Source: Squalus acanthias (Eukaryota). Taken from it: a DNA stretch of 64,000 nt. Positions 46,648 to 64,000 of this stretch are shown piece by piece; positions within the stretch are counted from its first letter, which is position 1; the number at the start of each line of letters is the position of its first letter. Made by a program: the position numbers and the translations under genes. The notes under the pieces are model-generated. The model was given only the letters and a program-made list of their open reading frames with translations, had not been told where the DNA came from and searched no databases. The stretch covers positions 130,822,001-130,886,000 of the forward strand of contig CM059431.1 of assembly GCA_030390025.1 (NCBI GenBank), read 5' to 3'.

Positions 46648-49600
46648 CCGATCATGCCTTCAGCCTTCCACCCTCTCCCCCGATCATGCTCTCAGCCTTT
46701 CCCCACCCCCTCACCCCGATCTCACCCTCAGTCTTCCCCCCCCGATCACACCCTCAGTCTTCCCCCCCCGATCACACCCTCAGTCTTCCCCCCCATCACA
46801 CCCTCAGTCTTTCCCCCCCGATCACACCCTCAGTCTTCCTCCCTCCCCCCGATCACACCCTCAGTCTTCCTCCCCCCGATCACACCCTCAGTCTTCCTCC
46901 CCCCCAATCACACCCTCAGTCTTCCCCCCCGATCACACCCTCAGTCTTCCTCCCTCCCCCCGATCACACCCTCAGTCTTCCTCCCCCGATCACACCCTCA
47001 GTCTTCCTCCCTCCCCCCGATCACACCCTCAGTCTTCCCCCCCCCGATCACACCCTCAGTCTTCCTCCCTCCCCCCGATCACACCCTCAGTCTTCCTCCC
47101 CCCCGATCACACCCTCAGTCTTCCTCCCTCCCCCCGATCACACCGTCAGTCTTCCTCCCCCCCGATCACACCCTCAGTCTTCCTCCCCCCGATCACACCC
47201 TCAGTCTTCCTCCCTCCCCCCGATCACACCCTCAGTCTTCCTCCCCCCCGATCACACCCTCAGTCTTCCTCCCTCCCCCCGATCACACCCTCAGTCTTCC
47301 CCCCCGATCACACCCTCAGTCTTCCTCCCCATCACACCCTCAGTCTTCCCCCAATCACACCCTCAGTCTTCCCTCGCCCCGATCACACCCTCAGTCTTCC
47401 TCCCCCATCACACCCTCAGTCTTCCCCCCAATCACACCCTCAGTCTTCCCTCCCCCCGATCACACCCTCAGTCTTCCTCCCCCCCCCGATCACACCCTCA
47501 GTCTTCCTCCCCCCCCCGATCACACCCTCAGTCTTGCCCCCCCCCCGATCACACCCTCAGTCTTCCTCCCTCCCCCCCGAGCACACCCTCAGTCTTCCCC
47601 CCCGATCACACCCTCAGTCTTCCTCCCTCCCCCCCCGATCACACCCTCAGTCTTCTTCCCTCCCCCCCCGATCACACCCTCAGTCTTCCTCCCCCCGATC
47701 ACACCCTCAGTCTTCCTCCCTCCCCCCCCGATCACACCCTCAGTCTTCCTCCCCCCGATCACACCCTCAGTCTTCCCCCCAATCACACCCTCAGTCTTCC
47801 CTCCCCGATCACACCCTCAGTCTTCCTCCCCCCCGATCACACCCTCAGTCTTCCTCCCCCTCCCCCGATCACACCCTCAGTCTTCCTCCCCCCGATCACA
47901 CCCTCAGTCTTCCCTCCCCCATCACACCCTCAGTCTTCCTCCCCCTCCCCCGATCACACCCTCAGTCTTCCTCCCCCTCCCCCGATCACACCCTCAGTCT
48001 TCCTCCCCCCGATCACACCCTCAGTCTTCCTCCCCCTCCCCCGATCACACCCTCAGTCTTCCTCCCCCCGATCACACCCTCAGTCTTCCTCCCCCCGATC
48101 ACACCCTCAGTCTTCCTGCCCCCCGATCACACCCTCAGTCTTCCTCCCTCCCCCCCGATCACACCCTCAGTCTTCCTCCCCCCGATCACACCCTCAGTCT
48201 TCCTCCCTCCCCCCATCACACCCTCAGTCTTCCTCCCCCCGATCACACCCTCAGTCTTCCTCCCCCCCGATCACACCCTCAGTCTTCCTCCCCCCCCCCG
48301 ATCACACCCTCAGTCTTCCCCCCGATCACACCCTCAGTCTTCCCCCCGATCACACCCTCAGTCTTCTCCCCGATCACACCCTCAGTCTTCCCCCCCATCA
48401 CACCCTCAGTCTTCCTCCCCCCCGATCACACCCTCAGTCTTCTCCCCGATCACACCCTCAGTCTTCCTCCCGATCACACCCTCAGTCTTCCTCCCCCCAA
48501 TCACACCCTCAGTCTTCCTCCCCCCGATCACACCCTCAGTCTTCCTCCCTCCCCCCCATCACACCCTCAGTCTTCCTCCCCCCGATCACACCCTCAGTCT
48601 TCCTCCCTCCCCCCCCGATCACACCCTCAGTCTTCCTCCCTCCCCCCCCGATCACACCCTCAGTCTTCCTCCTCCCCAATCACACCCTCAGTCTTCCCCC
48701 CCCGATCACACCCTCAGTCTTCCTCCCCCCCCGATCACACCCTCGGTCTTCCTCCCTCCCCCCGATCACACCCTCAGTCTTCCCCCCGATCACACCCTCA
48801 GTCTTCCTCCCCCCCGATCACACCCTCAGTCTTCCTCCCTCCCCCCCGATCACACCCTCAGTCTTCCTCCCTCCCCCCCGATCACACCCTCAGTCTTCCT
48901 CCCTCCCCCCCGATCACACCCTCAGTCTTCCTCCCCCCCGATCACACCCTCAGTCTTCCTCCCTCCCCCCCGATCACACCCTCAGTCTTCCTCCCCCCCG
49001 ATCTCACCCTCAGTCTTCCTCCCTCCCCCCCCCGATGACACCCTCAGTCTTCCTCCCCCCGATCACACCCTCAGTCTTCCTCCCCCCAATCACACCCTCA
49101 GTCTTCCCCCCCGATCACACCCTCAGTCTTCCTCCCTCCCCCGATCACACCCTCAGTCTTCCTCCCTCCCCCCGATCACACCCTCAGTCTTCTTCCCTCC
49201 CCCCCGATCACACCCTCAGTCTTCCTCCCTCCCCCCGATCACACCCTCAGTCTTCCTCCCTCTCCCCCGATCACACCCTCAGTCTTCCCCCCCGATCACA
49301 CCCTCAATCTTCCCCCCCGATCACACCCTCAGTCTTCCCCCCCAATCACACCCTCAGTCTTCCCCCCCGATCACACCCTCAGTCTTTCTCCCTCCCCCCG
49401 ATCACACCCTGAGTCTTCCTCCCCCCCATCACACCCTCAGTCTTCCCCCCCGATCACACCCTCAGTCTTCCTCCCTCCCCCCGATCACACCCTCAGTCTT
49501 CCTCCCCCCCGATCACACCCTCAGTCTTCCTCCCTCCCCCCGATCACACCCTCAGTCTTCCTCCCCCCCGATCACACCCTCAGTCTTCCTCCCTCCCCCC

Positions 49601-49940
49601 GATCACACCCTCAGTCTTCCTCCCTCCCCCCGATCACACCCTCAGTCTTCCCCCCCGATCACACCCTCAGTCTTCCTCCCTCCCCCCGATCACACCCTCA
49701 GTCTTCCTCCCCCCCGATCACACCCTCAGTCTTCCTCCCTCCCCCCGATCACACCCTCAGTCTTCCTCCCCCCCATTTCACCCTCAGTCTTCCTCCCCCC
49801 CGATCTCACCCTCAGTCTTCCTCCCTCCCCCCGATCTCACCCTCAGTCTTCCTCCTCCCCGATCACACCCTCAGTCTTCCCCCCCGATCACACCCTCAGT
49901 CCCCCTCCCCCCTCCCCACAATTGCACCCTCAGCCTTCCT
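46648..49940. repeat. C-rich minisatellite: near-invariant GATCACACCCTCAGTCTT core plus variable C/CCCT linker
   Basis: Roughly 110-120 units of about 23-33 bp (estimated from length), with degenerate units at both edges. Confidence 0.97.
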
Positions 49941-57790: not shown

Positions 57791-58907
57791 TCCATAGAAA
57801 GGATTTAGAAATTAGTTACTTTTTAAAAAATTTTAAATAAAGTGTGTTTTCACAAGTTTAAAAAGGCACCTCGATGAAGGTGGTTAATATACTAAATGGA
57901 AGTTGTTTTCCCAAGAGTCTAAAGAATAAGCTATTCATTAGCTTGTCTAGGCAATCGAGAGACACCTCACACTCATTGTGTTGGAACGGCTTTTAATCTC
58001 TCTCTGTGAAGAGGGTGATAAAAAGAGAAATGTAGGGACACAGAAAAGACAGGTTTTTGAAACAAGTAGGTGAAACAGCAGATTTGTTAATGGAAAAGCT
58101 GTGAGAAATTTTACTGAGGCAAAGAGGTTAGAAATGTCTGAGTATAGATTGAAGACTTCTTGTCTAAATCAAGTAAGATGACTCGCAGATGGGGGGTAGC
58201 ATCATGTGTTCTTTTTTTTGTATCATTGGGGTCATTTTAACTTTTATCACCGGGGAAAAAATAGGCGAAAGCAAATTGGCCCCATATTTTAAACCGCCCG
58301 ATTCACTATAGACTGAAGATAAAAATTTGAATTACCTCCATTATGTGATTATAAGTTGTACTGATGAATGAAGTGAATATGATCATAACTGTTACTGTGT
58401 TCACTCACTGAAACAAAGCAGCTTCGTGATTCATATCAAGCCTTGTCTCACCAAACAATATATCAGTCAACTTTGAGAGAGATTGCAGAAGTACAATTAC
58501 AAAAGATACAAATGGCTAGTTCAGATCACAAGGGGGTATTGTTGTTACACCCCCCCTGGGTGGTACTATATGCAAGTAGATAAAGGGCAGTGTAAGTCAA
58601 CTCCCATAACAAGTAAGACACTCAGACCATTTACGAGAGTGACTGATACCAATGAACCAAAGAAGGTATCTATGATAGACTCTCATTCTGTAAGGGGGCG
58701 TGTCTCAGACGGTGCTGGTGCGAGGTTAGGCCTTCGTTGCCTAATACTATTGCTTGCTCTGGTCTCCGGCCAGCCTTTTTGCAAAAAGCACCTGTGAGTG
58801 GTTCGACCCACTCGCCCTTACGGTTCTAACACTGGACTTAGATGCAGGGAGCAGTAATGCAGGGAAAAACTCAAATAGACTCGGTTGAATAGTACGAAAT
58901 GGAAATC

Positions 58908-58913
58908 TTTATT
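58908..58913 (-). terminator. LTR polyadenylation signal AATAAA
   Basis: Conserved at the equivalent position in the solo LTR (30746-30751). Confidence 0.7.
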
Positions 58914-59669
58914 GCATGGCGTCTAAAATCATGAAATACATGTCATAGGCGCAAATCAAAGAGAGTACAAGTATACATACATTCATAAAGCTTGGTCTAT
59001 GGAAATGGAGAACACACGGCACATCGTAGAAAGGGAAACACATTATACCTTAACCTTATTAAAAACCACTCTCCCTTAACACTACCTACACTACGTCTAG
59101 ATTTGTAGGATCGGAAAACATGCTCACCACTCGTGTTACTTCGGAGATTTTAAAGTGGGGCACTCAGCTCGTTTCGCTGCAGCGCCTGACTGTCACGTGT
59201 TTGGAAGGGTCTCTGCACCCCACTTGTTTACTTTCGCTGCTGCAAAAAGCAGGCCAGACTCCTTGTTGTCATGAAGAACTCGACGGAACTCAGATAAAAT
59301 TCAAAGAAGAGTCTTCCTGTGTTCGACACAGGTTGTAGTCGGTAGAACTCAAAGAAGAGTCCTGTATTTATATTTTCGGGCGCGGTCGGGGTTTACTGAC
59401 CGTGGCGGCACGTGGAATTTCTTCTCGTCTTCTTCTCATCTTCTTCTCATCTCGTCTCCTCGGGCCTCTGGGTCCAGACACCGTTTACCGACACTCGGGA
59501 TGGTGTACCCTGTTACTTGCCCTTGTCGGGGCGGCTCGTACCGATTGAGCTCCACCCAACACTTGAATAACCGACCAGTACGGCTAAGAGTCAAGAGTCA
59601 ACAAAGTCCAGAGAGAAAATCGAGAGCCCACAAGTCAAGCGAGTTCATGAAGAGGCAAGCGAATAAGAG

Positions 59670-59700
59670 ACCGATGGACATTTGTTCTCTATAGTTATAG
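59670..59700 (-). promoter_or_regulatory. Putative LTR TATA box (CACTATAA) and initiator (GTCCAT)
   Basis: The same motifs and similar spacing are conserved in the solo LTR (TATAA at 31531-31535). Confidence 0.5.
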
Positions 59701-60315
59701 TGATGTGTCCGCTTATCTCCCACTCAAATCTTAATGTTTGTCCTTTGTGTAATATTTGGCGCTCAAAACTCCCAGCATGGGGCGATTATCTTTTTCAACG
59801 GGTTTCGGTAGCACCTGAAACTGGCCAACTATCCGTTAATGTTTTCCCCATTGTTGGACCAGCCAGGATATGTATGGATCGTCTCCCTGACTGGTTTTGG
59901 GGCCCCCCGAATACTTGCTTAATCACCCGTCAATGTCTCTCTCATTGTAGAGCCGGGGGGGTATTTGTGTATTGATGTGTCTGGATGGGCCTTCGATTGC
60001 CCAGTACAATGATCCTTACTGTGCATAGGAAAACGATTCCAGCACTTATATCTTTGCTATTGTTCCAAATGCAAACGGGTTGCATCCTGTCTTTATCAGT
60101 GTTTACCGAGTATGATCCAATCTTATACTGAATGTATATTCAACGCCATCTTGTCTGCCCACTGTGTTTCTGGAAGCTTCTGCCACGATGCGCGGCGGCC
60201 ATTTTACAGGCTTCTGTGTCCTTTATTATCAGGACAGCATTTCGTTTAATAAAACTGATCAATGAATCTGCTTCTCTTATGTTATTTTGAATCGCGATAA
60301 TTGCGAAACTTTACA

Positions 60316-60327
60316 GTCCCTCCTGTT
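60316..60327 (-). other. Polypurine tract AACAGGAGGGAC
   Basis: Lies immediately 5' of the 3' LTR TG on the minus strand and is absent beside the solo LTR. Confidence 0.8.
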
Positions 60328-60709
60328 GATGCGAATAACTCCGTTTATCGTATCAATTAAAATGCTGGTGAGCAAAATTATCCCGATTCTCCACATCCAA
60401 ACACTCCCGGTAATTAAAACTATCTATGGCCTCCATGCAGTCCTCATTTCCCAGAGAAATTACATTGTCTAACTTGGACAAATCGTAGGCAGTATTGCCT
60501 TTAAACTTACACTGCGTATACGCCTTCCAGGAGCAACAGGCCGATGCCTCCCGCACCACCTGTATATGCATGTTTTATTATAAAAGGAAAAATAATCAAA
60601 CCAACTATTTTAAAAATACAAAAGTTCCAAACTTAATCACAAATACTCATAACTAACAACAATTACAAAACACACACATGGTAAAATGGAGCGGCGTCAT
60701 CCTGGCCGT

Positions 60710-63062
60710 TTACGCGGTACTTTCCTCGTTCACGCGCACGTAACGTTCTCTCCACTCCCCTGTGTTCTCCTGCCTTGTGAGGCGTTTGCCTCTTTTGCAG
60801 TGTACGACCAATAGGTACACTACAATCACAACTTGACACACTACCAAAATGTGGGAGGCTATCCTGATCCATGACGGAACTTCAATATTAGTGAACAGAT
60901 CCCACCACGGTGGGATTACTATGTCCAATATCTCTGTCCCTATCTCTACAGTCTTTTGTTCCAGGGTGTAAAAATGTTTCTGTGATACCATGACGGCTTT
61001 TAAAATCTTGGTGAGGTGTTCAGGGAGAGGGGGAATAATGTATCCGAAATGCGCGACGAATCGCTGCAAGTCTGTGAAATTCTCTTTTACAGTGAGGTGA
61101 ACAGTGGATGGTTCAGGGATCAGGACAATTCGCTGTTGTGCCACTTGAACTTCAGCCCTGGGTTTAAAACAGAAACTGCTGTCACTCACCGGACACCGGC
61201 TGTGCTGTCCATTCTGGTAGTGTTGCGCTGCAGTGGTAACGCAATACTTTCCACCCCCTATGTATGCCACCTGTGGGGGCACATGATCTTGTGTCATTGC
61301 TTCCATGGTGCAATTCATGGGCTTCGCGCCAGCCGTTCTGAACCCGCATTGTGGTGTTAAAAAGGCATTCAAGTGCTGGGGACACAGTATGATGTGTGCT
61401 CCCCGGCTACGACAACCCGAGAGGTTGACAACCTGTCATCGTTTGCTCCCAGCGGATGACGTAAGGTGGGACCGCTGCGTAGCGAATGTGGGCTCCCCCC
61501 TGAATGACACCAATGTTCTCCACCCGGTACACCGGGGCGGGCTTTGCTGTGTCGCCCAACACCGGCATCCGTACTACTATCCCCATGATAGTATGGTTTG
61601 ACCGTCCGCAGTCCACTGGGACTGGGTATGCCTCTGAGGCTAGCCTGAGCTGGCACAGGCTTAATGCGTTCTGAAAAGGGTGGAGCGCCTGCAGGTGTTT
61701 GTTACTTATCCAGGACGGGACCAAACCTTGTTTTAAATCCTCCAAACTACTGCAGCCCTCGCCCAGTAACCACGCCCCGTATAGTACGCACACCTCGTTC
61801 TGCGCAGCTTGATCGGATGCATTCCGATCTTCCCTGATCAGGGCATTTACCGTTCTCGCATGCTTCTCCAGCTCTGCGATAATCTCTTTTAAGTGTAGTG
61901 TCATGGCCAGGTCCTCATGTAACTCAGACCCTACTACCTTGTTCTCGTTTGTGAGGATGCTTTTTAACTGTGTTTTTAAACCATTGATCTGGGTCTGCAG
62001 CTGCACATTGTCTCGAGCGTTGACCACAGATGTTCCCGTATTAAAAGCAGTGAACACATCGTTCACAACACCCCTTCTTTGTCTCCCCACCTGACCCAAA
62101 ACTTCGTGTGGTGTGGTGTATAAGCTTGTTTTGTCAACCTCTGCAAAATCAAACTCATAAAATTGCCTGAACATGTTTGTTAACAGGACCTGGTACAATT
62201 GTTCCGTTTCTTTGGGGCACCACTCTGGTAAATGCACCTCGGTGAGATTTAGAATCACCGAAGCCACCGCGTAATGTACCCCTTGATATAGTATCTGATC
62301 TGTTGGCACCAGTACCAGACCATTCCCGGGCCCCTTAGTGGTTTTAGGGCACCCTTCCTCCTGAGCCAAAACCGCCGGAATCGTGGGCGGAGACTTGCGT
62401 GGGCGCATGATGAGTTCAGTGGCGTTTACCGGGATCGGGGAGAATGGAGCTCCGCACCCCCTGGTGCTGACATCCCACCTCATCCCTTTCCCATCATCCT
62501 GCCACTGTCGTAGGAAAAATATGGATATACCCTTGGGGCAAACGTACTTCGATCCCCATATACAAACATATATTCCCTCATCCGGTTCCCACCATTTGTC
62601 CCAACAGACTTTCAATTGTCCGTTAGTCCCCGTAATTGTCCGATGGGTATTGTTATCCAATCGCTCCCACTTGACCGAGGAATTTCTCATAGTCTTGCTT
62701 AACTTCCATAACCACCACCATTGGCTCAATGGGACCTTCCCATTGCACGTCAAACAAATCCTTTTGCCGACGGTGACGCTGATTCTGGGTGCAATGATCC
62801 TCACCCTGGGACACAGTAAAGAAGTCTCTTTGTAGGCAAATCCGGATGCGCTGGAGTATTCCGTTGAATTCGTTCCCAGCCATCCCGGCCACCTTCCCTT
62901 GTGGAAATAAGTGGCGATTTCCTCAGCCTCTCGCTCCCCGGTCCCATCCGTCGTGATGGGGGCCGTGTCCCCGGAGCAACCGAACACAACGACATCCTTG
63001 GTGAGGCCCCGATAGGCCAATCCATATCCGATCGTTGCGAGCACCATCAGAATCCTTTCCAT
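60710..63062 (-). pseudogene. env: Envelope glycoprotein: signal peptide, Ig-like domain, F-like class I fusion protein and TM (783 aa after removing one extra base at 61430-61431)
   Basis: MERILMVLATIGYGLA signal; furin site RQRR|GVVNDVFTAFNTGTSVV; heptad repeat; Cys-rich VNLSGC..IILC..C..NC region; PPWWDLF; TM HILVVCQVVIVVYLLVV; tail with YVRV. Located directly upstream of the PPT/LTR. Confidence 0.88.
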
Positions 63063-63074
63063 CTTTCCTGGTTC

Positions 63075-63095
63075 CTGTGATCAGATAAAATGATG
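63075..63095 (-). promoter_or_regulatory. Putative env splice acceptor
   Basis: CATTTTATCTGATCACAG|GAACCAGGAAAG-ATG, 12 nt upstream of the env start codon. Confidence 0.5.
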
Positions 63096-63333
63096 TAGCC
63101 AGCCTCCCAAGAGTCTCTGGCTTTTGTGAAGGGTGAGCGGGTCCCTTGACCTCGTCTCACGTATAAAGACATGTATACTGGATAGACTTTAACTATTCCT
63201 ATCACTAACTCCCATCATTTTACCATTTACCTTTAAAATTAAACTACAAACTTACCAAACTTAAGAACACTATAAACTTAAAACTTATCCTAAACTTAAC
63301 TGTACAGCGCCGCCCGTTACCAGGGCGGCCTAC

Positions 63334-64000
63334 CTAAATTCTGCGAAGGCTGCCACGAGCTTTTCCCAGTGGCGGGGGGGCACTGACCCCTTCCTTTGAT
63401 CTGCCGCAGCCTGTCGTCGCTGCGCTGGGACTGGGATCTCCCTGGGCTGCCTTGAACTTACGCCTGGGGGTGTACGAGGGTTTTGGCCACAACTTCCTGG
63501 GCTGGGGTGTCCGACTTGACCTACGGAGGGCTACCTTGGGCAAGATTTCCAGGACCGACGGACCGGGAACCGAGACTTCCACCGTCACGGCCTGTGGTCC
63601 CACCACAGCCGCTGGCTCTGTCTCCCCTGGCTCCGCCCCCCTGGGCTCGGGATCTGCGGTTTCCGACTCCACCCTACTTGTCTCTACAGTAAGTGGATCT
63701 TCACTCACAATCCCTATCTCCCCTATGCTTGGGTCAAGGGCGGAACCTCCGTCCTCCGAACCCACCACCTCTTAGACCGGGTCACTACCTTGGTCGAGCT
63801 CTCCGAGCTCTTCCTCATCTGAATCCCAAGACCAAGAAAAGATCCTACACTTTTCCAGAATGTCCTCTCCCCTCACGCAGGCTGCTTTACCCTGCCTGTG
63901 TGCCCTGCGGTTCTACCCGGGGCTGAGAGTCCCCACTCGCAGGTTTGGCCCCTCCCCTATGACAGGCCACCGCCCCTGCTTGTGCCTTCTGTGAAATCTC
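63334..64000 (-). pseudogene. Possible low-complexity C-terminal tail of pol/integrase (or an accessory ORF), with stops
   Basis: An acidic/Pro-rich stretch followed by LRRSSRTPQP, resembling integrase C-terminal tails of LTR retrotransposons. Positioned upstream of env. In-frame TAA at 63774-63772. Confidence 0.4.

Follow-up and report, generated by a model that had tools for sequence, protein, structure and literature searches.

A defective provirus of Squalus acanthias and its snakehead-retrovirus-related family: an envelope protein of predicted F type with an N-terminal extension

Retroviral envelope (Env) proteins that resemble the fusion (F) proteins of paramyxo- and pneumoviruses are already known from lokiretroviruses, as described in the relevant parts of PMC7947760, and an F core was found later in foamy-virus Env by Fernandez et al. 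(in the passages of PMC11468914 on its fold). Wang & Han, at a time when F-like Env was known only in lokiretroviruses, were undecided among four scenarios for the origin of env (discussion in PMC7947760). A third relevant system is snakehead retrovirus (SnRV), which is available as an infectious clone and depends on env for its spread (PMC12193657, sections on the clone); chondrichthyan endogenous retroviruses (ERVs) that cluster with SnRV were reported as CmiERV lineage I (Han 2015, PMC4422223, account of that lineage). Here we analysed a stretch of 64,000 nucleotides from Squalus acanthias (contig CM059431.1, positions 130,822,001 to 130,886,000; hereafter the window), which holds the 3' half of a provirus on its minus strand. 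At a probability of about 0.75, we read this provirus as a defective member of an abundant, SnRV-related family of true retroviruses, lying inside Retroviridae near SnRV and frog elements, with an F-type class I Env that carries an N-terminal extension. The novelty lies in the lineage, in the N-terminal add-on and in the connection with SnRV.

Predicted fold of the envelope protein

The env gene of the window is split between two frames. The first piece runs for 551 aa from Met to stop and the second, in another frame, for 239 aa (241 aa between stops); residues 1-544 of the former and the 239 of the latter add up to 783. In other copies, uninterrupted env frames of 789 codons between stops, or 783 counted from Met, read through the frame change of the window at about 61430. 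The original prediction had joined two open reading frames (ORFs) into one Env at this point: its 551-aa piece, its total of 783 and its frame change stand, and its second piece is corrected from 220 to 239 aa. Motif positions and fold were modelled on a natural uninterrupted 783-aa copy, P0003, to which both window pieces align without gaps (Table 1). The motifs that had been announced for Env were recovered in P0003, namely RQRR at aa 327-330, a Trp-rich stretch, a membrane anchor and a YxxV tail, and CX6CC is absent from this protein. Its most hydrophobic stretch, at about aa 732-756, is preceded by a WW motif and followed by a 27-residue tail that contains YVRV. The R-x-K/R-R cleavage motif is conserved in Env relatives, and so are Cys282 and Cys425, which could plausibly form a disulfide between the F2-like and F1-like parts.

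The P0003 fold was predicted with AlphaFold2 from 42 aligned rows. The mean predicted local distance difference test (pLDDT) value was 60.8, with blocks of 80-93 at residues 236-310 and 430-650. Foldseek matched this model to 244 PDB entries at E<=1e-3; the matches listed at the top were all paramyxo-/pneumovirus F proteins, the best being hPIV3 F (E 5.8e-12). With VIA-align, the model scored Z 13.1 against Langya F (root-mean-square deviation, rmsd, 17.2; 375 aligned) and Z 12.4 against Nipah F (8dmj; rmsd 4.9; 290 aligned). A scan of 48,161 chains made without Foldseek placed 11 chains at Z>=8, nine F proteins and two foamy-virus Env, above unrelated helical proteins at Z<=7.5. Residues 245-~715 of the model map to F chain residues ~29-476; F2- and F1-like parts are shared with paramyxo-/pneumovirus F (1ztm, 8dmj, 3maw, 6apb) and the model helices at 333-444 and 680-711 fall where the heptad repeats HRA and HRB lie. 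The Cys-rich, beta-rich F-like domains span both env pieces of the window, starting in the N-terminal and ending in the C-terminal piece. Taken together, these predictions support the conclusion that the family Env is a class I fusogen of paramyxo-/pneumovirus F type in fold, and they bear out the earlier proposal of an F-like Env rather than a gamma-type surface-transmembrane (SU-TM) protein. By contrast with paramyxo-/pneumovirus F, with which it shares 7-16% sequence identity and no sequence-level match, this Env has ~215 extra N-terminal residues, since viral F starts after the signal peptide where the P0003 model reaches residue ~245, and it is encoded by a retrovirus without a separate attachment protein.

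A HMMER search of 1.84 billion representatives returned 50 Env relatives. Among the 10 that were looked up are proteins of the sharks Chiloscyllium, Mustelus, Heptranchias, Heterodontus and Pristiophorus and of the frogs Pelodytes, Mantella and Xenopus tropicalis; a skate relative comes from Rhinoraja. In distant full-length relatives the alignment begins only at about residue 228, and a profile search of a 5.8-billion-protein set retrieved sharks and a skate but nothing beyond them. Several public shark and frog gene models (P0006, P0007, P0014, P0037, P0082) fuse env or pol pieces to host genes, namely 'Niban 1-like', 'ZFP2-like', a cadherin and an F-box protein, and look like annotation chimeras; the frog model P0082, named 'NYNRIN-like', consists of Pol that continues into an Ig-like env start. 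Such chimeric models are relevant to genome annotation.

The region ahead of the F-like body is 36-75% identical among close relatives and shows a Cys...W...D-E-G-I-Y-V-C pattern. Weak immunoglobulin (Ig) signals came from several sources: antibody V domains and JAM (E 0.2-1.1), Ig_3 (E 0.46-0.94), a V-set match in the frog relative P0041 (E 0.045), the UniRef name of the Chiloscyllium relative ('Ig-like domain-containing protein') and the Atlas neighbours of the region, mostly Ig families at a score of 0.79-0.81. The model places beta strands at 87-169 with pLDDT 40-59, and the N termini of frog relatives are more clearly V-set-like, both in P0041 and, by eye, at the end of the Pol-Env chimeric model P0082. 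We somewhat favour the view that, fused to the F2-like subunit, this region forms an Ig-like module for receptor binding. F has been described as a minimal scaffold that takes receptor modules either N-terminally, as in coronavirus spike, or between subunits, as in foamy Env (PMC11468914, where scaffold architecture is treated), and by this analogy the present Env would be of the N-terminal-module kind.

From what the F and foamy Env literature describes, the protein would be a type I trimeric Env cleaved at RQRR into F2-like and F1-like parts, its N-terminal region serving as a receptor-binding module. The cleaved trimer, by analogy with F and foamy-virus Env, would be metastable before fusion. 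On triggering, the first heptad helix would extend and the stretch after the cleavage site would insert into the membrane, and the second helix would then fold back into a six-helix bundle. When the two heptad regions were modelled as a complex, each in triplicate, the prediction scored 0.51, 0.01 and 0.01, which is evidence neither way.

The SnRV Env was compared with a 25-row profile of the family. The alignment by hhalign (probability 93.2%, E 3e-7, 342 columns, SnRV residues 519-906) starts at a shared CP-x-x-x-GP-x-x-G motif, and on this profile match SnRV Env is assigned to the same protein family as the window Env. An AlphaFold2 model of SnRV Env residues 500-972 (29 rows) had a pLDDT of 62.9 and gave 116 Foldseek matches at E<=1e-3 (best E 2e-6), those listed being all F proteins. 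SnRV Env thus very probably has the same F-type body behind an extension of roughly 500 residues, against about 215 in the window family. Within that extension (P0077, about 85-135), Y-x-C-M-W occurs twice, to be compared with D-E-G-I-Y-V-C-M-W in the family; BLAST returned only weak segments here, and the two N-terminal add-ons may be related. In the openly accessible literature, subscription journals not being covered, we found no paper that describes an SnRV-type Env as F-like.

Several observations count against this view of Env. The F reading rests on the predicted model because none of the sequence methods connected Env with F: Pfam PF00523 gave no match to P0003 at E<=10, to 20 relatives at E<=0.1 or to SnRV Env at E<=1, and neither PDB phmmer nor the family profile run against PDB found F. 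The overall confidence of the P0003 model is middling, with residues 1-235 under pLDDT 60. The 25 residues after RQRR have a mean Kyte-Doolittle value of only 0.55, a weak hydrophobicity that contrasts with the strongly hydrophobic fusion peptides in the printed Env sequences of lokiretroviruses. The signals behind the Ig-like reading are weak, and no PDB entry matched a profile built from the N-terminal region. For SnRV Env, the template modelling (TM) scores of the model were only 0.22-0.27, its VIA-align Z was at most 7.4 with foamy Env as the top, though tied, match, and plain BLASTP between the family Env and SnRV Env was not significant.

Placement of the family by Pol, and alternative readings

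Pol was read from a full-length copy, L023, where it is laid out in four ORFs that encode RVP, RVT_1 (E 2e-32), RT_RNaseH_2/RT_RNaseH, RNase_H, Integrase_H2C2, rve and an SH3-like end. This Pol has a double RNase H, a tether (PF17919/PF17917) followed by a second domain (PF00075), an arrangement that marks retroviruses and lokiretroviruses and not Gypsy, according to the section of PMC7947760 on this character. As references we used 20 gamma-/delta-type loci found by motif scan and 22 long Pol proteins found by integrase-ORF search. SnRV was represented by an IMG/VR contig (L025, degenerate motif scan) whose reverse transcriptase (RT) equals the SnRV row in the Wang & Han supplement and which measures 10,688 nt, as in PMC12193657. 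The single lokiretrovirus in the trees, P0083, was recognised by motifs in the PMC7947760 supplement, where KAYYDRKAS occurs 5 times, KLSPVAYRI 6, WVECLPAPNDTA 10 and NSPAEFN 56, among the matches listed always in lokiretrovirus Pol.

In RT-core identity, the window family is closest to P0079, a close relative (92%), followed by the frog element P0082 (56%), P0081 (49%), SnRV (47.7%), P0084 of Xenopus tropicalis (47%) and P0080 (43%); the lokiretrovirus P0083 stands at 33.5%, gamma/delta elements at 31-36% and Gypsy at 24-31%. Four dual-RNase-H Pols outside the lokiretroviruses, two of them named as frog, thus fall at 43-56%. The careful RT tree (41 rows, 208 columns; P0090, a 54-aa fragment, was dropped, and P0096 and L036 had no match) splits Gypsy from the retroviral side at 100/99. 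On the retroviral side the lokiretrovirus branches first (84/62), then P0080, and the remaining 25-row group (93/90) is an open fork of SnRV, P0081+P0084, P0082 with the window family (87/91), and gamma/delta. The Pol tree, built by quick search from 21 rows and 1,025 columns without P0090, P0096 and the gamma/delta loci, which lack integrase, makes the lokiretrovirus sister to the other six (window family, frog elements and SnRV) at a Shimodaira-Hasegawa-like approximate likelihood ratio (SH-aLRT) of 99 and again separates Gypsy, at 100. By these Pol comparisons, the family is placed among true retroviruses, close to SnRV and to frog elements, and is neither a lokiretrovirus nor a Gypsy element.

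SnRV is the nearest named virus by RT core, with a PR-RT BLAST E of 1e-70. As in the window family, its gag combines a coiled coil at the N terminus with a CCHC knuckle, and its primer site is of the tRNA-Arg type. The two also differ. The SnRV primer site matches tRNA-Arg(ACG), whereas that of the window family matches a different isoacceptor, tRNA-Arg(TCG); and accessory ORFs and a long tail on Env are described for SnRV (PMC12193657, genome description), whereas the window family has the short tail and no conserved extra ORF. CmiERV lineage I consists of few, old insertions with an LTR (long terminal repeat) divergence of 0.033 in the CmiERV account (PMC4422223), whereas the window family has thousands of candidate copies and a divergence of 0.015 in this copy. 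A resemblance was also seen in gag: by eye, the first ~40 residues of the family gag (L023) resemble the N terminus of the Loki-Xtr polyprotein ('Spc7-Gag-Pol', PMC7947760), both continuing into a coiled coil, and SnRV gag aligns weakly to the family gag N terminus (E 7e-4). A shared N-terminal gag module across the window family, lokiretrovirus and SnRV is possible on these alignments.

The placement near SnRV has its own weak points. The RT tree leaves the relation between SnRV and the family in an open fork; SnRV sits on a long branch in the Pol tree, which does not include gamma, epsilon, foamy or lentiviral Pol; and the integrase core of the family is 36.7% identical to that of the lokiretrovirus P0083 and only 28.5% to that of SnRV, a discordance that the long SnRV branch may explain. 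Both trees were built without epsilon, foamy and published SnRV-like ERV references. A search of viral contigs with the family RT found no relative, and no segment of the env alignment was sufficiently conserved to serve as a query there.

The integrase figures also speak for the alternative that this is a lokiretrovirus, a lineage sister to all retroviruses with a Mononegavirales F-like Env, as the label 'lokiretrovirus-like' in the original prediction had it. The integrase motif LPLVLM occurs 44 times in the PMC7947760 supplement, and both groups have a double RNase H and an N-terminal gag coiled coil. Lokiretrovirus Env also has the same F layout (signal peptide, GP-x-x-G start, R-x-K/R-R, coiled coil, Cys-rich region, anchor; Wang & Han 2020, PMC7947760), with the motifs in the same order as in the window Env; this comparison was made with the printed consensus sequences of the supplement by eye and by short-motif look-ups only. 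In lokiretrovirus Env, however, the F2-like part comes right after the signal peptide, without an N-terminal extension, and PF00523 is matched (2.2e-7, Wang & Han), unlike in the window Env. The RT core, at the identities given above, favours SnRV, the lokiretrovirus branches off before the group that holds the window family in both trees, and the RT motifs ISNGFW and PQGFH have all their occurrences (3/3 each) in SnRV rows of the Wang & Han RT alignments. In their species list Xenopus tropicalis bears an asterisk, which, its legend not seen, is taken as 'found', and sharks bear none; the X. tropicalis protein of the window env family (P0070) is distinct from the Loki-Xtr Env in print. We therefore regard a lokiretrovirus as unlikely.

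A foamy-like (class III, spumavirus-related) ERV is suggested by structure: foamy Env, the only retroviral Env whose F-like core has been solved, is among the 11 best matches of the P0003 model (8rm1, Z 8.6, 291 aligned; 8rm0, Z 8.2, rmsd 5.4, 269 aligned) and is the top, though tied, match of the SnRV Env model. Cartilaginous fish are known to harbour foamy-like ERVs, and a paper on cartilaginous-fish endogenous foamy viruses is cited in the reference list of PMC11468914. Paramyxo-/pneumovirus F nevertheless outscores foamy Env, with Z up to 12.2-13.1. Foamy viruses are not known to have a Cys-His knuckle in gag, and they typically have a tRNA-Lys primer site and a leader peptide in Env. The window family, by contrast, has a CCHC zinc knuckle in gag and a tRNA-Arg primer site. 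Foamy Env (8rm0, 8rm1) shares the F-like core and has its own receptor-binding module, which is described as lying between the two subunits (PMC11468914, structural sections), whereas the extra module here is N-terminal, as in coronavirus spike. Both trees lack foamy Pol and do not bear on this alternative, which we consider very improbable.

The original prediction also allowed an env-captured Gypsy element, that is, a Ty3/Gypsy (Metaviridae) element with an acquired F-type env, like insect errantiviruses. F-type env is widespread in invertebrate Gypsy elements (10.1101/2023.10.26.564294, in its survey of them), and the chimeric relative P0037 has a weak Baculo_F match (E 0.0011). Against this, the family is not Gypsy because it has two RNase H domains, the tether and the second one, and falls in the retroviral clade: all 14 Gypsy Pols lack PF00075 and lie on the other side of the branch supported at 100/99 in the RT tree, as they do in the Pol tree. 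The same preprint reports no vertebrate elements homologous to the invertebrate ones, and we give this origin scarcely any credence. That env was captured and domesticated by the host as a syncytin-like fusogen, and is not part of a mobile element, is least credible of all: shark and skate gene models do carry pieces of env and many copies keep it open, but the window env is frameshifted and lies between LTRs with a target duplication, thousands of candidate copies stand at 92-96% identity, and the annotated env models are either fragmentary or fused to Niban, zinc-finger, cadherin or F-box proteins.

The provirus and its family in the genome

The whole element measures 9,075 bp, from window position 58689 to window-equivalent 67760 on the minus strand (window-equivalent coordinates continue the window numbering into the flanking DNA beyond 64,000). 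The minus-strand order foreseen for the window, a pol-like tail, env, polypurine tract and 3' LTR, was located in full, the tail being the end of the integrase ORF. A second LTR and a recurrence of the ATTC target duplication had been expected outside the window; the 5' LTR was found there, 98.48% identical to the 3' LTR over 1,584 aligned bases, and GAAT flanks both ends of the element. Of the 24 differences between the LTRs, 21 are transitions and 15 are CpG-type, for a Kimura two-parameter (K2P) distance of 0.0154, and there are 3 indels. An 18-nt primer site, five bases past the 5' LTR, is complementary to the 3' end of the host tRNA-Arg(TCG). The complement of the primer site extended by a T-arm prefix has 435 matches in the genome, and both loci scanned carry a tRNA-Arg(TCG) that ends at the match. 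On G000:C26, at about 38.99-41.88 Mb (L047, L048), tRNA-Arg(TCG) is carried by large tandem arrays with a period of about 1,623 bp, and a tRNA-Ser(GCT) adjoins it in the C26 array locus scanned.

Table 1 Features of the provirus, in window numbering. Motif positions in env follow the uninterrupted copy P0003.
Feature	Position	Strand	Remark
Target-site duplication	58685..58688	.	ATTC on +, GAAT on element strand; recurs directly past 5' LTR outside window
3' LTR, 1,627 bp, TG...CA	58689..60315	-	direct repeat of 5' LTR
Polypurine tract abutting 3' LTR	60316..60327	-	purine-rich, read from sequence
73-codon ORF between env and 3' LTR	60353..60574	-	open frame; probably no gene
env C-terminal piece, aa 545-783 in numbering of uninterrupted copies	60710..61429	-	229/239 residues identical to natural copy P0003
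env stop codon	60710-60712	-	
env membrane anchor	about 60794-60868	-	
env second heptad helix	about 60929-61024	-	
env N-terminal piece, 551-aa ORF, aa 1-544 = env proper	61407..63062	-	517/544 residues identical to P0003
env frameshift	61428..61432	-	two frames overlap; uninterrupted copies read through
env fusion-peptide-like stretch and long heptad helix	about 61731-62072	-	
env F2-like part	62073-62357	-	
env RQRR cleavage site, aa 327-330	62073-62084	-	
env extra N-terminal region with weakly Ig-like stretch	about 62358-63005	-	
env signal peptide	about 63009-63062	-	
C-terminal tail of integrase frame, pol remnant, 145 codons	63334..63771	-	same sequence as integrase ORF end in full-length copies
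Start of 449-bp segment, runs to window-equivalent 64402	63954..64000	-	replaces pol; encodes coiled-coil piece resembling part of gag
5' LTR	window-equivalent 66178-67760, outside window, 7.5 kb upstream of 3' LTR	-	direct repeat

Beyond the window, gag, primer site and 5' LTR were recovered as anticipated, and pol turned out to be absent from this copy. The copy contains gag, which has a coiled coil and a CCHC knuckle and is interrupted by one in-frame stop, a diverged second gag-like coiled-coil piece, the integrase tail and env; protease, RT, RNase H and the integrase core were not found in the whole 9,075-bp element. Compared with a full-length copy (12,393 bp between LTR ends), with which its DNA is collinear from window position 63953 downwards, 3,706 bp of protease-RT-RNase H-integrase are gone and 449 bp of other sequence stand instead. 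The window copy is dead and cannot function, because pol is missing, gag has a stop codon and env a frameshift. The reading as an LTR provirus thus holds, with an LTR pair and a matching target duplication, and is amended in that the loss of pol and the ~215 extra N-terminal residues of Env had been missed.

About 380 bp separate env from the 3' LTR. We weighed the 73-codon ORF in this gap as a possible accessory gene and dismissed it, since it is disrupted or truncated in most of the 11 other copies compared. Elsewhere in the window, positions 46709-49912 hold a 3.2-kb C-rich minisatellite with a 28-31-bp unit, about 113 copies and 84-86% matches; its GC skew goes down to -0.78, and it yields a spurious proline-rich open frame of 1,317 codons.

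Copy numbers were estimated in the 3.7-Gb assembly as first-look candidate counts from a biased top slice, not as a census; that these are candidates and not verified copies tells against the abundance we read from them. With the last 712 bp of the LTR we obtained 3,272 candidates, of which the 40 scored were 96-100% identical, the window's own LTR at the top and the best other copies at 96-99%; with the 551-aa env piece there were 9,718, of which 79 were scored at 92-100%. The env frame was uninterrupted, with no stop in the match, in 32 of these 79 (30 in 789-codon and 2 in 834-codon frames), the remainder being shorter or stop-bearing; three 789-codon frames and one 834-codon frame were checked directly. 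Full-length members, of about 12.4 kb, are laid out as LTR, tRNA-Arg(TCG) primer site, gag with a coiled coil and CCHC knuckle, pol, env, polypurine tract and LTR. The pol-less junction of the window copy is also present at loci L012 and L019, and on C1 two paired LTRs are likewise 7.5 kb apart. Since it recurs at other loci, the pol-less form was probably copied with proteins from full-length members.

The family is very abundant and fairly young. At a divergence of 0.0154, typical vertebrate rates of 1-2e-9 per site per year would give an insertion age of about 4-8 My. The slow rate implied by the elephant shark table, where an LTR divergence of 0.033 stands for 75 My (PMC4422223, tabulated values), gives about 35 My. 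The expectation of a fairly recent element with intact copies elsewhere agrees with this low divergence and with the open env frames. Other arrangements were noted in passing. At G000:C4:80542580-80564887, three LTRs in the same orientation, about 10.8 kb apart, suggest tandem proviruses that share an LTR; further LTR pairs are spaced 11.7 and 15.1-15.3 kb apart, pointing to longer variants or insertions; and two non-LTR retrotransposon reverse transcriptase ORFs adjoin the 5' LTR of the full-length comparison copy (L023:8370-9587, plus strand).

Origin of retroviral envelope genes

The origin of retroviral envelope genes is an open question, to which this locus adds a third F-type lineage, one that stands among ordinary retroviruses by Pol. 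We offer only as a tentative and rather doubtful proposal that F-type Env, beyond lokiretroviruses and foamy viruses, also serves a large SnRV-related zinc-knuckle radiation (sharks, skates, frogs and SnRV) with an Ig-like N-terminal module; three deep lineages would then share it, most simply because the first retroviruses carried an F-type env which gamma-type SU-TM replaced later. Because the family is linked to SnRV, which has an infectious clone, the question of Env origin becomes testable in a culturable virus. The N-terminal add-on shows a way in which an F scaffold may operate without a separate attachment protein. For studies of ERV activity in cartilaginous fish, the thousands of candidate copies, many with open env, and the pol-less gag-env subfamily matter as well.

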